Below are positions 2,278 through 8,384 of a stretch of 64,000 nucleotides of DNA, piece by piece. The first letter of the stretch is position 1. Each line of letters opens with the position of its first letter. Made by a program: the position numbers and the translations under genes. The stretch comes from a phage, in sequence record PV805638.1. One strand, written 5' to 3'. The notes beneath the pieces are model-generated. The model searched no databases, was not told the DNA's origin, and worked only from the letters and a program-made list of their open reading frames with translations.

Positions 2278-2606
2278 ACACTGCCAGAAGAGTATGTACG
2301 GGGGAACCAGTGATATTCACTAACATTGAGGATGCCATTGAAGAATGTATCTTCCGTAGATATCACACTGGAGTACAGAAACGACACTATGGTGTTGTGC
2401 AACTCAATGGCTATCAAATGGCTGTAAGAATTGTACGTAACAATAAACCTTTTAACTTTATGTGGAGTACTAAACATGCGTAAGTCATTAATCATGGGAA
2501 CCAAAGCTGACGTACAAAAGATGAAAGAGCGTCTGGCTGCTAAGCAACAGGCATCTGAATCAGTACGTAAGATTGTTACCTTCAATCATCCGTGCATCAA
2601 ATAGTA

Positions 2607-2645
2607 AGGAGTCCTCCAATAGGAGGCTCCTATTTTTTATTTTTG
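2607..2645 (+). terminator. rho-independent terminator
   Basis: GGAG(T)CCTCC-AATA-GGAGGCTCC hairpin with one bulge followed by TATTTTTTATTTTT. Confidence 0.65.
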
Positions 2646-2681
2646 AATAGTTAAATATGTATTTAAATAGGAGAAAGAACC

Positions 2682-2990
2682 TTGAATGAAATAGTATGCA
2701 TACTTCCACACTTAGCTAAAGTAGCTGATAGGAATATACGGATACATTTACCCTTCCCATTAAGTAACCCATTCACTCGTAATGAAAGAACCACAGTAGA
2801 GGATATAGAGGTAGCTTATGAAGCTTACCTTCGTAATCGTCTTATTAGTGGTGACAAATTAATTACAGCAGAGATGGAAAGGATTGCTGGCTTTGTCACA
2901 GATAGTACAAAGAAACCTGTTGGTTTAATTGGTACTGAATCTGATGTTAACGTTATTCGTAAAATATTAATGGAGGCATTAAGCCAATGA
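2682..2990 (+). CDS. hypothetical protein (TTG start)
   Basis: ORF 102 aa; AGGAGA RBS upstream; stop overlaps next ATG (ATGATG). Confidence 0.5.
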   Translation: MNEIVCILPHLAKVADRNIRIHLPFPLSNPFTRNERTTVEDIEVAYEAYLRNRLISGDKLITAEMERIAGFVTDSTKKPVGLIGTESDVNVIRKILMEALSQ

Positions 2991-3208
2991 TGTACTCAAA
3001 CGATTATGGTATATGCCCAGTCTGTAAGAAAGGACGTGGAGTTGCCAATCATAAGCGTTGTAGTCGTATATTGCAGAAGCAACGGAACCAGGAAGAATGG
3101 GCTAAGGTGCTGGAAAATCAGCATAAAGAAGAGAATCAACAGATGGCTGTTAGGGCATCTACTCAACGTATTCGCCGTATTAACTATATACAGGGGTATC
3201 AGAAATGA
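2987..3208 (+). CDS. hypothetical protein with CPVCKK motif
   Basis: ORF 73 aa; coupled ATGA junctions on both sides. Confidence 0.5.
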   Translation: MMYSNDYGICPVCKKGRGVANHKRCSRILQKQRNQEEWAKVLENQHKEENQQMAVRASTQRIRRINYIQGYQK

Positions 3209-3564
3209 AACTGATTGTAGCTGGTGGACGTGACTTCACTGACACCAATCGTATGATTATTGAATTACAAAAGCTAGTGGAATCTGGTGAAATAATTGAT
3301 TCACCTGAACTTGTATGTGGTATGGCTAGAGGAGCAGACATTACAGCATACAATCTCTGGAAAGGAGCAGGAATGATAATACATGAATTTCCTGCTGACT
3401 GGGACAGACTAGGTAAGCGTGCAGGTTATGTACGTAATACCGAAATGGCTAATTTCGCAGATACTCTTGTAGCATTCTGGGATGGTAAGTCAAAAGGAAC
3501 CAAGCACATGATTGATACCATGACCCGGTTCAATAATAAGAAAGTAATAGTGGTGAGGTACTAA
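3205..3564 (+). CDS. DUF2493 (SLOG-family, DprA/LOG-like Rossmann) protein
   Basis: VAGGRDF ... GMARGAD ... EFPADWDRLGKRAGYVRN ... FWDGKSKGT matches the DUF2493 pattern from memory. Confidence 0.6.
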   Translation: MKLIVAGGRDFTDTNRMIIELQKLVESGEIIDSPELVCGMARGADITAYNLWKGAGMIIHEFPADWDRLGKRAGYVRNTEMANFADTLVAFWDGKSKGTKHMIDTMTRFNNKKVIVVRY

Positions 3565-3822
3565 GTGATTATTACATTCCCTGCAACTAAATCATTTAAC
3601 TATATGGGACAAACTATTGAAGTCCCATTATGGGTTAAATATGTAGCCTTATTACCTCGACCACAGAAGAGTAAAAATGCCTCACTAATTGGATTTAGTA
3701 GAAAGCCTAAGCTGACTGAAAACTGTATTTGGAAGTCCAGTGGCAGACAAGAGGAAATTGGTTTTTGTGACTACGTACCTCAACCGAATACAGTATATCT
3801 AACCCTGGAGAAAGTAGAGTGA
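3565..3822 (+). CDS. hypothetical protein (GTG start)
   Basis: ORF 85 aa, GTG immediately after previous stop. Confidence 0.45.
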   Translation: MIITFPATKSFNYMGQTIEVPLWVKYVALLPRPQKSKNASLIGFSRKPKLTENCIWKSSGRQEEIGFCDYVPQPNTVYLTLEKVE

Positions 3823-4133
3823 ATAACATTGTAGTAGTACATGATAATACATTTACTGATGTCGATAAGATGATGCGTAATATTGATTACGTATCTCAGA
3901 CTAGTAAAGCATTCAACGAAGAGTTCACTATCTATTGTGAACCAGAATCACCACTGGTTTCTGTATTAAAAGAAGCAGGTCTACCCTTCTCTACAGAGAA
4001 CTTCCCGGAGGAGCCAGAGTATATGATTACATTCATATATGACTTACATGATGGCTCTCCTGCCAGTGAACTAGCTATGAACCAGTGGAGTAGTAAACGT
4101 CCTGTATATGCTTTCCAGGTACTCAAACCATGA
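3819..4133 (+). CDS. hypothetical protein (GTG start)
   Basis: ORF 104 aa, GTGA overlap with upstream stop. Confidence 0.45.
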   Translation: MNNIVVVHDNTFTDVDKMMRNIDYVSQTSKAFNEEFTIYCEPESPLVSVLKEAGLPFSTENFPEEPEYMITFIYDLHDGSPASELAMNQWSSKRPVYAFQVLKP

Positions 4134-4372
4134 TCTATGAAGAATATTATGTATTCAAAAAGGGAGATGATTTTATAGCTATGCCTGATAATTACAGGGG
4201 TTGGCATACAACTCCTGTATTAAAGGAAGCATTTTCCGTACCTAACCTGGAAGAGGTTAATAAAGTAATGAACGGGGTAATGCTAACAAGAGGTATGGCT
4301 TACAAAATAGACGCATTAGAAGGAGCTTCCGTATGCAAAGTAACTACATCCATTGAGGTAGTTAAACCGTGA
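4130..4372 (+). CDS. hypothetical protein
   Basis: ORF 80 aa, ATGA overlap. Confidence 0.45.
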   Translation: MIYEEYYVFKKGDDFIAMPDNYRGWHTTPVLKEAFSVPNLEEVNKVMNGVMLTRGMAYKIDALEGASVCKVTTSIEVVKP

Positions 4373-4749
4373 AAACTATCTCATTAGGTGATAACACCAA
4401 TGCTTTGATGGGTGTATCCGCACGTCCAATTACCATTGTTAATAAACATCACGGTAAATCCGGTGAGTATATTGGGCGTGGCTCACCGTTAGGCAATCCA
4501 TTCGTCATTGGTAAACATGGAACCAGAGAGCAAGTAATTGCTAAGTATAAGGTCTGGCTACAAGAACAGATTGATAAAGGCAATCCAGTTGTACTGGATG
4601 AACTCAATCGTCTTGGTAATAAAGCCATTGATGAAAAAGGTCTGGCCTTACAGTGCTTCTGTTATCCAAAACCATGTCATGGTGAGGTTATTAAAGAGAA
4701 GCTAGTAAAGGCTATGTATAACTACTTTGTAGAAAATCCAAAAGGGTAA
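4369..4749 (+). CDS. DUF4326-family protein
   Basis: GRGSPLGNPF ... LQCFCYPKPCHGEVI matches the DUF4326 signature from memory. Confidence 0.6.
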   Translation: MKTISLGDNTNALMGVSARPITIVNKHHGKSGEYIGRGSPLGNPFVIGKHGTREQVIAKYKVWLQEQIDKGNPVVLDELNRLGNKAIDEKGLALQCFCYPKPCHGEVIKEKLVKAMYNYFVENPKG

Positions 4750-4752
4750 CTA

Positions 4753-5103
4753 ATGAAAGAGATATTCGTATTTACTACCAACATATTAGGTCAACATACC
4801 AATGCTGCTGCCAAGTTAGCTTATAAGAAGCATGGTGCTCGCTGGGGTATGGCCTACGGTCATTATGGTAATAGCTTTGCCATTCCAGTAAGGGATGGCA
4901 ATGGTAACCGAATTAAAGAGGGTGCTATCTATGGCTTCGTTGAAGGCTTTATTTCCTATGCATCTACTAATCCACAGTGGGATTTCAAAGTAATGGGAGA
5001 TGACTTTCTGGACCCATACCTGTTCAATAATGTTACTGGCAATGTACTGTTACCAGAAGCATGGCGTAAACACTTAGGTGATGCTTACAACTACTGGTCA
5101 TAA
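4753..5103 (+). CDS. hypothetical protein (possible Rossmann-like fold)
   Basis: ORF 116 aa; FVFTTN...G...AA motif; family not recognised. Confidence 0.5.
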   Translation: MKEIFVFTTNILGQHTNAAAKLAYKKHGARWGMAYGHYGNSFAIPVRDGNGNRIKEGAIYGFVEGFISYASTNPQWDFKVMGDDFLDPYLFNNVTGNVLLPEAWRKHLGDAYNYWS

Positions 5104-5107
5104 GAAG

Positions 5108-5120
5108 GGTGCTCCGCACC
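5108..5120 (+). promoter_or_regulatory. vRNAP-type hairpin early promoter candidate (GGTGC-TCC-GCACC)
   Basis: Third copy of the GCTCCGC 5-bp/3-nt hairpin, just after the stop of ORF 4753..5103. Confidence 0.5.
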
Positions 5121-5135
5121 TTAAGGAAGTAATCA

Positions 5136-5365
5136 TGGCAGTATCCATTCAGGAAATCATTGTTAAGAGGCACAAGAGAAAATGGGAAAGCTATTACAAG
5201 CTAAAAGAAGTAATTAATGCTGCTTACCTTAGTAAAACAGGTCATGCCAAGATTGAGCTAAATAGTGCATGGCCTTGGAGACATAACATCTATACAGATA
5301 ATCTAATCCTGTTCTATAGCTATGGAAATGAGCATAAGGGTAGCTGTCTAGTTGTAATAATGTGA
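5136..5365 (+). CDS. hypothetical protein (76 aa)
   Basis: ATG 5136 with AAGGAAG RBS downstream of hairpin 5108..5120; ORF-track start 5078 lies inside the previous gene. Confidence 0.45.
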
Positions 5366-5387
5366 TTAACTAATTGGAGAATATGCG

Positions 5388-6206
5388 ATGTACTCATCTA
5401 TCGAACATCAGAAGCAGCTTGAAGTCCTATTCAATAAAAATCAATTACTGCCTCGCATGAGGAAGGAATTCGAGGACTCCAAAGAAATTGACTTTAAGGC
5501 ATTCGCTGCCTATTTAGAAATTGATTATAAGCTGCTCATTGATGCAATGGTGCAGATTGCCCTACATAAACGTGCTGACATCCAGACTATGATTGGCTCT
5601 CTTATGAGTCACTCAGATGATGCTCAGTATATCGCTGACTGTCTGTATAAGATGGCAGAGAATGACTGCTTCAACTATGACCCTACCATCGACAAGTTCG
5701 GTGTTATCTATGAGATTAGTGAAGATGTCCAGATGGAACTGGAAGCATTCCAGTATCCGTTACCTATCGTAAGTGCTCCTAATCCTGTCAGATCTAACAG
5801 GGATACTGGTTACTACCAGACTAGGGGAAGCATTATCCTCAAAAAGAACCATCATGAGATGGATGTCTGCCTTGATCACATCAACCGTATGAACAATCAA
5901 CGCCTCTGTATTAACTGGGATGTTGCTAACTATGTAAAAGATTCTCGTCCTAACATGGATAAACCCAAAGAGGGTGAAACCCGTCAGGAATATGAGAAAC
6001 GTGTTAAAGCCTTTGAGAAGTACAGTCGTACTGCTAAGGAAGTAATGGAGTTAGTGACTCAAGAAGGGAATAACTTCTCACTAGGCCACAAATACGACAA
6101 ACGTGGGCGTACCTACGCTCAGGGCTATCACATTAACTATCAGGGAACCAGCTACAACAAAGCTGTTCTGGAGTTCGCTGATAAGGAGCTGGTAAACGAT
6201 GATTAA
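5388..6206 (+). CDS. phage RNA polymerase II small subunit (T7-like RNAP N-terminal half, N4 RNAP1-like)
   Basis: 272 aa; YDKRGRTYAQG resembles the T7-RNAP D-x-x-GR motif; immediately upstream of a gene carrying motifs A/B/C. Confidence 0.6.
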   Translation: MYSSIEHQKQLEVLFNKNQLLPRMRKEFEDSKEIDFKAFAAYLEIDYKLLIDAMVQIALHKRADIQTMIGSLMSHSDDAQYIADCLYKMAENDCFNYDPTIDKFGVIYEISEDVQMELEAFQYPLPIVSAPNPVRSNRDTGYYQTRGSIILKKNHHEMDVCLDHINRMNNQRLCINWDVANYVKDSRPNMDKPKEGETRQEYEKRVKAFEKYSRTAKEVMELVTQEGNNFSLGHKYDKRGRTYAQGYHINYQGTSYNKAVLEFADKELVNDD

Positions 6207-6359
6207 TAATCGTGCAGTAGAAGACTTCTATGCTCATAGAGAGTTGGTACTGAAACGTATCAATGAAGCAATGAAACGTGAAGCAGAAGCTAAAGCTAAA
6301 CGTAACCGTAAATAAATCCAAATGCGAGCCAAGTGGCTCAAGACGCTAAGGAATACAAA

Positions 6360-6791
6360 ATGCAACTGTTAACTGCCCGTGAATACCTGAAAGTAGATAT
6401 CGCTAACAACTATGGCTTAGACAAGAAGACATGGGATGAGCGTATTAGCTGGTTCGATGAGAATGAAGCTAACCTGCTTAATCTGGTAGATGAAGCTGAA
6501 GAATCTGCATTGTTCTATGCTGGTGTAAACGCATGGAAAGATATGAAAGCCGGTAAGCCTATCGGTTATGCTGTAGCTCTGGATGCTACATCATCCGGCT
6601 TACAGCTACTGGCTTGCCTGACTGGTGACCGTTCTGCTGCTGAACTGTGTAACGTAGTTAACTACATGGGGGAGAATGGTAAGCCATTACGTCGTGATGC
6701 TTATACAGTTATCTATCACAAGATGCTGGACATCCTTGGTGAAGCATCTCGTATTAAACGTAGTGATACTAAGCAGGCCGTTAACCTATAA
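6360..6791 (+). CDS. phage RNA polymerase II large subunit (RNAP2), 5' exon / N-terminal fragment
   Basis: DATSSGLQLLACLTGD resembles T7 RNAP motif A (DGSCSGIQH); ORF stops inside the motif-B region (SDTKQAVNL*). Confidence 0.6.
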   Translation: MQLLTAREYLKVDIANNYGLDKKTWDERISWFDENEANLLNLVDEAEESALFYAGVNAWKDMKAGKPIGYAVALDATSSGLQLLACLTGDRSAAELCNVVNYMGENGKPLRRDAYTVIYHKMLDILGEASRIKRSDTKQAVNL

Positions 6792-7596
6792 GTCATGGCG
6801 GCCTTTAAACCGGGTGAACTCATGGAACATCCCTAGTGGACAATCATGAGCCAAGTTGGTAACGTAGAAAGCTCAATAAGGAGCATTCTATGTCAGAATT
6901 CAAAACGTGCAGTCGATGTAAAGAATTACTTCCTATCGAAGTATTCCCAGAGACTAAAAAAGCAATCACAGGACTCAAGACTAATTACGAGAATCGTTGC
7001 AGACCTTGCAAGGCTGCTGCTGCTCGTGAATGGCGTAAAAATAATCCCGGTTACACTGGAACTGGGATTCTTAAGGCAATACCGGAAGAGCATCGTAAAT
7101 GGTATTCAGCAGTCTCACTTAGACTGAGAGATGCAAAGAGCAGATGTAAAAAGCTCGGTAAGCCTATGCCTGATTGCACAGTAGAGTACTTATTTGAAAT
7201 CCTTAAATCACAGGAATTCAAATGTGCTTTAACTGGTGCAACCTTAGTAATTGAGTCGGGACATCCCTTGTGTCTATCATTAGACCAGATAGAGCCAAGC
7301 AAGGGATATAGTATTGATAATGTTCAATGGTTAGCTTGGTGTGTAAACCGAGCAAAGGGTGACCTTTCTACCAATGACTTTATTGATATGTGTGATGCTG
7401 TTTTGAATAACCAAAAGGTGCAGAGACTATCGAAAAGCAGCGTAAGCTGAACTTAGTAGAGTAGGCCCAAGTGGGTCGAAGCGCCCGGCTAGACTAATAG
7501 TCTAGATGATATAGTCCGAACTCACTGGTAACAGTGAGATGCAGGTAAAGCTGCTGGGGAAGATTAACGACCTTCCTTGAACATAATGTATGACTG
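6790..7596 (+). mobile_element. putative group I intron (about 0.8 kb) with HNH homing endonuclease ORF, interrupting RNAP2
   Basis: RNAP2 homology stops at 6791 and resumes at about 7590 in motif B; no RBS before the 3' part; GNRA-capped hairpin 7521..7538 and other hairpins; boundaries are approximate (+/-10 nt). Confidence 0.45.
6890..7450 (+). CDS. HNH homing endonuclease
   Basis: 186 aa; strong AAGGAG RBS; N-terminal Cys cluster and SLDQIEPSKGYSIDNVQWLAWCVNRAKGD HNH-type motif. Confidence 0.7.
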   Translation: MSEFKTCSRCKELLPIEVFPETKKAITGLKTNYENRCRPCKAAAAREWRKNNPGYTGTGILKAIPEEHRKWYSAVSLRLRDAKSRCKKLGKPMPDCTVEYLFEILKSQEFKCALTGATLVIESGHPLCLSLDQIEPSKGYSIDNVQWLAWCVNRAKGDLSTNDFIDMCDAVLNNQKVQRLSKSSVS

Positions 7597-8384
7597 CATT
7601 CTATGGTTCAGAAGCCAAGCCTAAAGAAGTATTCGGTGAAGGTATTCGTCTCAAGACTTTTGAGAATGTAATGGAAACAGTTGCTAGTGGACCTTGGGCA
7701 CTGAACAAGTTCTTACTGCAATGTGGTAACCCGGATGCTAGCCGTTACGTATGGGTACTGCCTGACAATTTCCATGCTGTCATTAAGGTCATGGTTCCAG
7801 AGGTACAGACCGTTAACTTCTTAGGTAAGCCATTCGACATCACTCGTATGGTTCAGGGTACTGAAGATAAGACTCGTATGCTCTCTGCTAACATCACCCA
7901 CTCTATTGATGGAATGGTGGTACGTGAGATGCTGCGTCGCTGTAACTTCGACATGAACCAGGTGAACTATATTAAGTCCCTCTGTGAAGGGACCAGTGAG
8001 TATATGCTGGGTACTAGCGAAAACTACGACATGGTTAGTCAACTGTGGCATAACTATGAGAAATCAGGATTCCTGTCTACCCGTATCTTTGATTATCTGG
8101 ATTCTGACTCAATTAAACTGGTTGATACAGATGTAATCATGGCTATGCTTAATACCATGCCTAAGAAACCATTCCCTGTAATGACCGTACATGACTGCTT
8201 CCGTTGTCATCCTAACTATGGCAATGACTTGCGTCGTCAGTACAATCAGATTCTGTCTGACATTGCTAAGAGTGACCTACTGGGCTTCATCCTGTCTCAG
8301 GTACTGGGGCAAGAGTTCTCTGCTGGTAAGCTGGATGACAGCCTCTGGCAGGACATCCTTGAAACGGATTATGCATTAAGTTAA
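7590..8384 (+). CDS. phage RNA polymerase II large subunit (RNAP2), 3' exon / C-terminal fragment
   Basis: AFYGSEAKPKE resembles T7 motif B (LAYGSKEFG); TVHDCFRCHP resembles motif C (HDSFGT); exon 1 + exon 2 is about 410 aa. Confidence 0.6.
   Translation: MTAFYGSEAKPKEVFGEGIRLKTFENVMETVASGPWALNKFLLQCGNPDASRYVWVLPDNFHAVIKVMVPEVQTVNFLGKPFDITRMVQGTEDKTRMLSANITHSIDGMVVREMLRRCNFDMNQVNYIKSLCEGTSEYMLGTSENYDMVSQLWHNYEKSGFLSTRIFDYLDSDSIKLVDTDVIMAMLNTMPKKPFPVMTVHDCFRCHPNYGNDLRRQYNQILSDIAKSDLLGFILSQVLGQEFSAGKLDDSLWQDILETDYALS

Follow-up and report, generated by a model that had tools for sequence, protein, structure and literature searches.

Gene content of the early block

The DNA analyzed here, hereafter the window, is a stretch of 64,000 nucleotides from a phage (sequence record PV805638.1), and our subject is a block of eight packed plus-strand genes near its left end (positions 2682-5103), which encodes, among others, a SLOG-domain protein, a DUF4326 protein and a protein with a predicted macro fold. 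The window represents the left end of a G7C-like coliphage (genus Gamaleyavirus, N4-like): the region 2600-5400 matched 79 phage records, nearly all from Escherichia or Shigella N4-like phages of this genus, and the nearest record, vB_EcoP_G7C (G7C), displayed ~95% identity over only 79% of the query. The gene order is that of N4 and G7C, namely gp1, gp2 (RNAP1-A), small open reading frames (ORFs), gp9, gp11, gp12, gp14, gp15 (RNAP1-B) and gp16. An initial annotation had outlined six coupled ORFs between 3205 and 5103, and exactly these were recovered, coding for proteins of 119, 85, 104, 80, 126 and 116 amino acids (aa). Because the frames overlap or abut (ATGA at 3205, TAA followed by GTG at 3562-3567, GTGA at 3819, ATGA at 4130 and GTGA at 4369), with a 3-nt gap upstream of 4753 as the only spaced junction, translational coupling is plausible. 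The packed run starts two genes earlier, with a gene at 2682-2990 followed by an overlapping one at 2987-3208.

The first of the six ORFs (3205-3564) encodes a stand-alone SLOG protein of the YAcAr family (formerly DUF2493). It matched PF10686 over residues 1-68 (E = 2.9e-7, 30.6 bits, gathering cut-off 28.2) and phrog_289 over residues 1-116 (E = 1.9e-29). All family motifs are present, including the A-G-G-R loop after strand 1, G-x-A-x-G-A-D, the R-N pair and G-x-S-x-G-T. In a 41-sequence alignment, the protein keeps every invariant column (G7, R9, G43, A64, W66, A73, G74 and R77) as well as every column conserved in at least 90% of the sequences (A6, G39, A41, D45, N78, G94, S96, G98, T99 and M102). 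Searches against the PDB with the single sequence gave chance-level matches only and those with the profile a weak match to DprA (E = 0.08), so that neither identified a convincing solved relative. In the genome of phage ICP1 (MW794179.1, 88399-88701), a region of the accessory helicase HelB is 45% identical to the window SLOG protein; it is thus a SLOG-helicase fusion, a type that has been noted earlier (PMC9503650).

The homologue of N4 gp12 (4369-4749) carries an intact DUF4326 domain (PF14216, E = 2.1e-22, 80 bits, cut-off 25; phrog_464, E = 2e-39). Thus, the SLOG and DUF4326 assignments of the initial annotation are both supported by domain matches above the respective cut-offs. A usable DUF4326 alignment was obtained from a second search seeded with a divergent IMG/VR homologue, the first search having returned near-identical sequences only. 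The gp12 homologue retains all 16 invariant columns of the resulting 66-sequence alignment, which include YIGRG, GNP and C96-x-C98-x-P-x2-C103-H104-G. In the PDB, the single gp12 sequence gave chance-level matches only, and no convincing solved relative was found with the DUF4326 profile. Structurally, the gp12 model was closest to RapZ-C, followed by protein tyrosine and dual-specificity (PTP/DUSP) phosphatases, and gp12 is accordingly modelled with a Rhodanese/Cys-phosphatase-like (RapZ-C-like) fold. RapZ-C, DUF488 and DUF4326 reportedly form one clade in the 2023 rhodanese-phosphatase paper of Burroughs and Aravind, with which the model agrees. The protein is 94% identical to N4 gp12 (N4 3605-3973; dS 0.71, dN 0.04), more than RNAP1-B gp15 (66%) or gp2 (72%) are to their N4 counterparts. 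Yet, despite this strong constraint, the gene is missing in phages Moonfish and E20.

The first gene of the block (2682-2990), homologous to N4 gp9, encodes a paralogue of gp12. The relationship is evident from matches to phrog_464 (E = 3.7e-15) and, in BLASTP, to gp12 itself (E = 1e-7), with a Pfam DUF4326 score below the cut-off (E = 0.021, 15.9 bits vs 25). Alignment to the DUF4326 profile is confined to the central 'SNPF + helix' segment, and the protein lacks YIGRG as well as every Cys and His of the C-x-C-x4-C-H loop. Judging from these losses, gp9 is a diverged, catalytically degenerate DUF4326 relative, not a functional member of the family.

The last gene (4753-5103) is an orthologue of N4 gp14 (phrog_2072, E = 1.4e-37) and belongs to the A1S_2505 family of phage non-structural proteins (NCBIfam NF049995, 86.2 bits vs cut-off 45, E = 1.7e-24). 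An AlphaFold2 model built with 39 homologues reached a predicted local distance difference test score (pLDDT) of 90.1 and a predicted template modelling score (pTM) of 0.84. A Foldseek search with this model returned nothing at E <= 1e-3; its high-probability matches were TARG1 (probability 0.97, template modelling score 0.58), DarG and designed hydrolases. The gp14 family profile aligned without gaps to TARG1 over 58 residues, at a weak E-value of 0.7, in a register that places 'PTK' on 'ITK84' and 'tRIGCGLag' on 'pRIGCGLD125r'. Initially described as possibly Rossmann-like, the protein is instead predicted from the model to have a macro alpha/beta/alpha fold of the TARG1/DarG type.

Canonical members of the gp14 family, such as N4 gp14 and Moonfish gp60, carry the motifs FGSNxAGxHGAGAA, IPTKD and TRIGCGLAG. 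In the window protein, loop 1 (GSNxAGxHGAGAA) is replaced by TTNILGQHTNAAA, and the window protein and its Gamaleyavirus relatives read FTTNILGQHTNAAA at this position. Furthermore, IPTKD has become IPVRD, with an arginine at the place of the putative catalytic lysine, and the nine-residue loop-2 segment TRIGCGLAG is deleted outright. The same degenerate type is found in G7C, E20, 24-32N, Mimir124, SP5M and KKP 3715, whereas N4 and Moonfish have the canonical one. The altered segments correspond to the ADP-ribose-binding loops and the catalytic lysine of TARG1/DarG-type macro domains, in which functional roles have been assigned to K84 and D125 of TARG1 and K80 of DarG. With both putative ligand loops degenerate, the window gp14 very probably cannot bind or hydrolyze ADP-ribose in the usual manner, the fold being kept.

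Pfam Macro (PF01661) matched neither the window gp14 nor N4 gp14 but did match T4 Tk.4 (2.9e-6), and a single-sequence PDB search with gp14 yielded chance-level matches only. T4 Tk.4/AdfM, a phage anti-DarT macro protein (preprint 10.1101/2025.11.20.689424), was considered as a member of the gp14 family and rejected: the hhalign alignment covered the RIGxG segment only, with a probability of 1.8%, so that the two have the fold class in common but not the sequence family. A gp14-like member of the macro family in Rhodobacter phage RcAqua (2501-2869) is annotated as 'ADP-ribosyltransferase' in GenBank. We had considered an ADP-ribosyltransferase adjoining the gp14-like gene of this phage, but the label sits on the gp14-like gene itself and provides no independent evidence; given the macro fold, it looks like a mis-annotation.

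The remaining four genes are small. The homologue of G7C gp9.1 (2987-3208, 73 aa; phrog_6887, E = 2e-42) has a CxxC...HxxC motif; the CPVC...HKRC arrangement, as read from the translation, is suggestive of a small zinc ribbon, and the G7C annotation notes a similarity to phiEco32 gp122. The homologues of G7C gp9.2 (3565-3822; phrog_1972, a PHROG without annotation, E = 2.7e-18), N4 gp11 (3819-4133; phrog_7827, E = 2e-56; 71% identical to N4 gp11) and G7C gp11.1 (4130-4372) yielded no informative family in Pfam, PHROG, NCBIfam or PADLOC: gp9.2 had no match at all in Pfam, NCBIfam or PADLOC, and gp11.1 had no family match in any of the four. For gp11, hhalign reported a weak similarity to the SLOG profile (probability 31%, E = 5e-4, 56 in-register N-terminal columns), while BLASTP against SLOG and a comparison with the macro profile gave nothing. 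The gp11 family is shallow, a jackhmmer search over all fetched loci having recovered members of the Enquatrovirinae only. Possibly, gp11 is a degenerate SLOG-like Rossmannoid.

Transcription signals and gene-by-gene variability

Three plus-strand hairpins resembling early promoters of the virion RNA polymerase (vRNAP) were identified, each consisting of a GC-rich stem of 5 bp that encloses a TCC loop, with a conserved YYTWWDGA after it. The first (GTTGC-TCC-GCAAC, 88-100) lies upstream of the gp1 homologue; the second (GACGC-TCC-GCGTC, 767-779) lies upstream of the gp2 homologue and is the nearest one 5' of the block; and the third (GGTGC-TCC-GCACC, 5108-5120) marks the downstream end of the block, ahead of an ORF at 5135-5365 and RNAP1-B. 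The corresponding 17-nt motif, GCTCCGCNNYYTWWDGA, occurs 3 times in the 64 kb, against 0.09 occurrences expected, always on the plus strand and within the left 5.2 kb. Read on the template strand, the loop is GGA, as in the promoters of N4, and the promoters of N4 lie within the leftmost 10% of its genome (PMC4496689). The heptamer GCTCCGC is found in the N4 genome at 562-568, just before gp2, and at 4551-4557, in the gp14/gp15 gap. The block lies between the gp2 and gp15/RNAP1 homologues, within the stretch that holds the three hairpins, and these, together with their N4 counterparts, therefore place it inside the early region.

Terminator-like hairpins with T-runs were detected after gp2 (1281-1310) and, on the plus strand, directly upstream of the block before gp9 (2611-2645), and terminators are annotated in SP5M at the equivalent positions. 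The location in the early region proposed in the initial annotation thus holds, whereas transcription by vRNAP, which was also part of that proposal, would have to occur by read-through across both hairpins. The AT-rich sequence ATTTAAA at 2661-2667, just before gp9, could be a middle-promoter-like element. Host-type sigma-70 promoters were also sought, and the scan found fewer sites than in shuffled controls (10 vs 24.6), so that none of this type is proposed. Another perfect hairpin, of 12-14 bp, follows gp1 at 469-499 and has AATAGGAGGCTC in common with the hairpin at 2618-2634.

Purifying selection acts on every gene of the block, and none of them is merely a chance ORF. Pairwise Nei-Gojobori comparisons of nine Gamaleyavirus loci (dS 0.3-1.2) yielded ratios of nonsynonymous to synonymous substitution rates (dN/dS) of 0.18 for gp9.1, 0.23 for SLOG, 0.16 for gp9.2, 0.13 for gp11, 0.12 for the DUF4326 protein gp12 and 0.16 for gp14, whereas the 0.25 of gp11.1 comes from one pair only (dS 0.13). 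The lowest value among the eight genes, 0.08, was that of gp9.

The initial annotation had treated the genes as one module, a view that does not hold among the relatives, where they are gained and lost individually. Relative to G7C, the window differs at SLOG by a cassette of precisely one gene, the insertion or deletion running exactly from ATG to TAA with the flanks CA(G/A)AA and GTGATTATTACATTCCC conserved (window 3195-3215 and 3555-3575 vs G7C 3570-3640). Among the loci examined, gp11.1 was present only in the window and G7C. From this pattern of presence and absence and the exact boundaries of the SLOG cassette, it follows that the block is a cassette-exchanging accessory region, with no fixed operon or co-inherited module.

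Proposed function and competing explanations

We propose, with a probability of roughly 0.5, that the block is a counter-defence region whose products are deployed early and act on molecules of host immunity derived from NAD+ or ADP-ribose. This reading is based on the fusion partners of the SLOG proteins, the predicted folds and experimental precedents. Regarding the latter, DarG-like macro (T4 AdfM) and NADAR (AdfN) proteins of phages neutralize DarTG. Furthermore, DruSM1 ORF83, a protein of the Seuratvirus gp80 type, has been described as countering AVAST type III (preprints 10.1101/2024.04.14.589459 and 10.1101/2025.06.06.658234). Deletion of ORF83 lowered infectivity on hosts with AVAST type III (preprint 10.1101/2024.04.14.589459); R89, N90, T112 and D114 have been proposed as its adenosine monophosphate (AMP)-site residues, and homologues of it are fused to DUF4326. 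Exactly these four residues are present in Seurat gp80, which, like the window SLOG protein, belongs to PF10686 (E = 4.9e-18).

The SLOG family is large, with 14,505 representative relatives (50% identity clusters) at E <= 1e-3 and 1,099 phage records, and the closest of these representatives, 64% identical to the window protein, is a SLOG-DUF4326 fusion. In 45 long SLOG relatives, the fusion partners were DUF4326 (8), NADAR (5), Macro (3), DUF488-N3a (3) and the T4 gp30.3/AdfN family (1), and a DUF4326-SLOG fusion was also present in one IMG/VR locus. That SLOG and DUF4326 cooperate in some lineages is shown by the fusions. DUF4326 was encoded on the same strand as SLOG and within 8 kb of it in 7 (one a fusion) of 80 diverse IMG/VR loci. 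With 1,455 DUF4326 places known from 2.3 Gb of phage DNA, ~0.7 would be expected in flanks totalling 1.12 Mb. This approximately 10-fold enrichment has to be read with the greater sensitivity of the hidden Markov model compared with tblastn, and with the N4-like origin of four of the seven positives, in mind. In distant N4-like contigs, SLOG and DUF4326 stand side by side, adjoining RNAP1.

The link to nucleotide-centred conflict drawn in the initial annotation is upheld by the fusions of SLOG relatives to DUF4326, NADAR and Macro and by earlier work (PMC7824862; PMC9503650). Its focus on cyclic-nucleotide systems is not: the partners point to NAD+/ADP-ribose derivatives and to ADP-ribosylation, as in Thoeris, DarTG, NADase systems and AVAST III, and nothing points to CBASS or Pycsar. 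The function had been called unassigned, which is true of experiments but not of predictions, as both the domain combination and a specific role for it are already in the literature (PMC7824862; PMC9503650). The present analysis adds the fold assignment of the gp14 family and the loss of its loops in phages like G7C; it also recognizes gp9 as a DUF4326 relative stripped of its motifs, describes how the block varies from gene to gene and provides a promoter map.

We infer the following timing, substrates, SLOG-DUF4326 cooperation and counter-defence role. The translationally coupled accessory genes at 2682-5103 would be expressed very early, at the onset of infection or close to it. The SLOG protein would bind an adenine-nucleotide or ADP-ribose derivative and possibly cleave its ribosyl-base N-glycosidic bond, as LOG-type SLOG enzymes do, and gp12 would act on the ribose of that molecule, or of its breakdown product, by removing a phosphate or transferring it. 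The joint outcome might be the destruction of a host signal or toxin, or the reversal of a modification; Thoeris-type ADP-ribose-derived signals and DarT-type ADP-ribosylation products are candidate targets, as is whatever elicits the AVAST type III response. Since gp14 and the gp9-like paralogue lack ligand-binding or catalytic residues and yet are conserved, their role here would most likely be non-enzymatic, that of binders, regulators or decoys.

This last idea can be taken further. In a speculative and rather improbable extension, gp14, gp9 and perhaps gp11 would be pseudoenzyme counter-defence factors standing beside intact SLOG and DUF4326 proteins in an 'enzyme plus decoy' arsenal across the Gamaleyaviruses, where the stripped proteins would block host ADP-ribosyltransferase toxins or sensors or sequester ADP-ribose-derived signals. 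Should the degenerate proteins indeed be functional decoys, pseudoenzymes would be added to the anti-defence strategies known so far; otherwise, the block is an unremarkable case of a class already predicted computationally.

Several observations weigh against the counter-defence reading. SLOG is missing from G7C and N4, and gp12 is missing from Moonfish and E20; the two genes are not co-inherited and therefore cannot be obligate partners. DUF4326 was not found within 8 kb in 73 of the 80 SLOG loci, and the four N4-like loci among the seven positives are non-independent. The sole macro-type protein here lacks its binding loops, so that one of the three supposed ADP-ribose enzymes is gone. In T4-like phages (e.g., VR26, Roth88, phiKp_12 and CIP9), DUF4326 adjoins nrdA/nrdB/td. 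Two terminator-like hairpins (1281-1310 and 2611-2645) separate the nearest vRNAP promoter from the block. Any function of these genes in N4 and G7C is a prediction, and the ORF83 phenotype is modest and reported in a preprint. The window SLOG protein has only 35% identity with Seurat gp80 across 69 N-terminal residues (E = 5e-8), and it keeps three of the four AMP-site positions (R77, N78 and T99), with H101 in place of D114. Finally, no protein of the block had a match in PADLOC, which says little, since that resource covers defence and not anti-defence families.

Some of these points would equally suit a set of independent early 'moron' cassettes that lie side by side and have separate roles, possibly against different host targets, with no shared pathway. 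We consider this explanation unlikely. It accounts well for the gene-by-gene gain and loss among close relatives, the precise single-gene indel of SLOG relative to G7C, the different small flanking ORFs from phage to phage and the lack of a nearby DUF4326 gene in the majority of SLOG loci. It sits poorly, however, with the recurrent fusions of SLOG to DUF4326, NADAR or Macro in close relatives, the best match included, with the SLOG/DUF4326 adjacency that recurs in distant N4-like contigs and with the ~10-fold enrichment of DUF4326 near SLOG.

A role in the nucleotide or DNA metabolism of the phage rather than in immunity appears less probable still. Under this explanation, SLOG would be a LOG/DprA-like N-glycosidase or a single-stranded DNA binder and DUF4326 a sugar-phosphate or DNA-end phosphatase serving replication or repair. 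Relatives are annotated as 'DprA' or 'DNA repair protein', DprA (PF02481) is a secondary match in 10 of the 45 SLOG relatives, and EVADES predicts an AMP phosphoribohydrolase activity for ORF83. The position of DUF4326 beside nrdA/nrdB/td is a hint that some members of the family may belong to nucleotide metabolism, and it probably also explains the 'NrdA-like' annotations; phrog_30585 and phrog_24867 are labelled DNA repair and NrdA-like. However, sister phages that replicate with the same machinery can do without these genes, which are located among the early genes, outside the replication (middle) block; the SLOG protein is a bare 119-aa domain; and the fusion partners are ADP-ribose-processing domains far more often than replication proteins. 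According to EVADES, the relative ORF83 lacks the DprA dimerization and RecA-binding residues, a statement that concerns ORF83 and not the window protein.

Very unlikely, in our view, is the version put forward in the initial annotation, in which the module acts against the cyclic (oligo)nucleotide signals of CBASS, Pycsar or type III CRISPR by degrading or sequestering them. SLOG domains are indeed known ligand sensors in nucleotide-signalling systems (PMC9503650), and the early position would fit, but no fusion partner or neighbour comes from cyclic-nucleotide phosphodiesterase or sponge families, the partners NADAR, Macro and DUF4326 belong to ADP-ribose chemistry, and the characterized SLOG sensor ThsA recognizes variant cyclic ADP-ribose signals (PMC9503650). 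The least probable explanation, that the phage itself makes an ADP-ribose-derived signal, with SLOG as generator and DUF4326/macro as the 'off' switch of a toggle on host physiology, conflicts with the later preference of the same authors for degradation of host signals by viral SLOGs (PMC9503650), with the apparent inactivity of the macro 'off' component in this phage and with the lack of any NAD+-consuming generator signature seen here, although none was tested for.

The NAD+/ADP-ribose reading directs attention to DarTG, Thoeris, AVAST III and NADase effectors among the host systems, and away from CBASS and Pycsar. N4-like phages are in wide use as models and as therapy candidates, and for their early genes gp9-gp14 testable predictions are offered here: SLOG as a nucleotide binder or N-glycosidase, DUF4326 as a phosphatase-like enzyme and gp14 as a protein of macro fold, canonical in N4 and apparently inactivated in G7C-like phages. 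Natural single-gene variants offer ready comparisons: SLOG is missing in G7C and DUF4326 in Moonfish and E20, and gp14 occurs in canonical and degenerate versions.

Neighbouring genes and comparison with known systems

Several features were observed outside the block. Between promoter-like hairpin 3 and RNAP1-B lies an extra 76-aa ORF (5135-5365) with no family match, which is absent in G7C, present in 24-32N and E20, and has weaker matches in Mimir124 and SP5M; its dN/dS was 0.55 in the single informative pair. The RNAP2 (N4 gp16) gene is apparently in two pieces (region with ORFs at 6333-6791, 6890-7450 and 7590-8384). Its N-terminal part matches PF00940 (E = 1.2e-10), the C-terminal part is a separate ORF, and a 186-aa ORF without a Pfam match lies between them. 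The layout is the same in Moonfish, with an ORF annotated as HNH endonuclease between the RNAP2 pieces; in G7C, the endonuclease is located between gp15 and gp16 instead. Upstream of the block, motifs rich in His, Cys and Asp (HHCGY, DCAHHGD) are present in the N4 gp4 homologue (1716-2120; phrog_2164). It also resembles, though weakly, a MazG-like pyrophosphatase PHROG (E = 0.009) and is possibly a further early protein that acts on nucleotides.

A close parallel to the block is provided by the viral sets of SLOG, Macro, NADAR and DUF4326 genes predicted by Iyer, Burroughs, Aravind and co-workers to process ADP-ribose (PMC7824862; PMC9503650), an assignment that is likewise computational. There, too, early phage genes encode these families in stand-alone form, relatives show the same fusions and DUF4326 has a phosphatase-like fold. 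Unlike in these sets, the genes of the window are separate and interleaved with other ORFs, the macro protein is degenerate and a degenerate DUF4326 paralogue is added.

The individual proteins can also be compared with known ones. Like the window SLOG protein, those of the ORF83 type are stand-alone PF10686 proteins of ~120-130 aa, and the two have in common the GGRDF start, G-x-A-x-G-x-D, the R-N pair and a G-T motif; the window protein differs in the absence of an insert of ~20 residues, and its phage belongs to a different family. The macro domains of TARG1 and DarG are similar to gp14 in fold, and the canonical members related to N4 gp14 carry a GAGxA loop, a T-K pair and a RIGCGL loop like TARG1, the last of which is also matched by the segment PRIGAGIG of T4 Tk.4. 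The window gp14, in contrast, is without the RIGCGLAG loop, the loop-1 glycines and the lysine, and hydrolysis of ADP-ribose is not expected of it. RapZ-C is structurally the nearest to the gp12 model, and DUF488-N3a is found fused to SLOG relatives; RapZ-C, however, binds sugar phosphate and RNA, whereas DUF4326 has the invariant C-x-C-x4-C-H loop. Finally, the early genes gp9, gp11, gp12 and gp14 of N4 itself are orthologous and syntenic to those of the window, with 75, 71, 94 and 50% amino-acid identity, respectively. N4 differs in having gp10 and gp13 instead of SLOG, gp9.1, gp9.2 and gp11.1, and in its canonical gp14.

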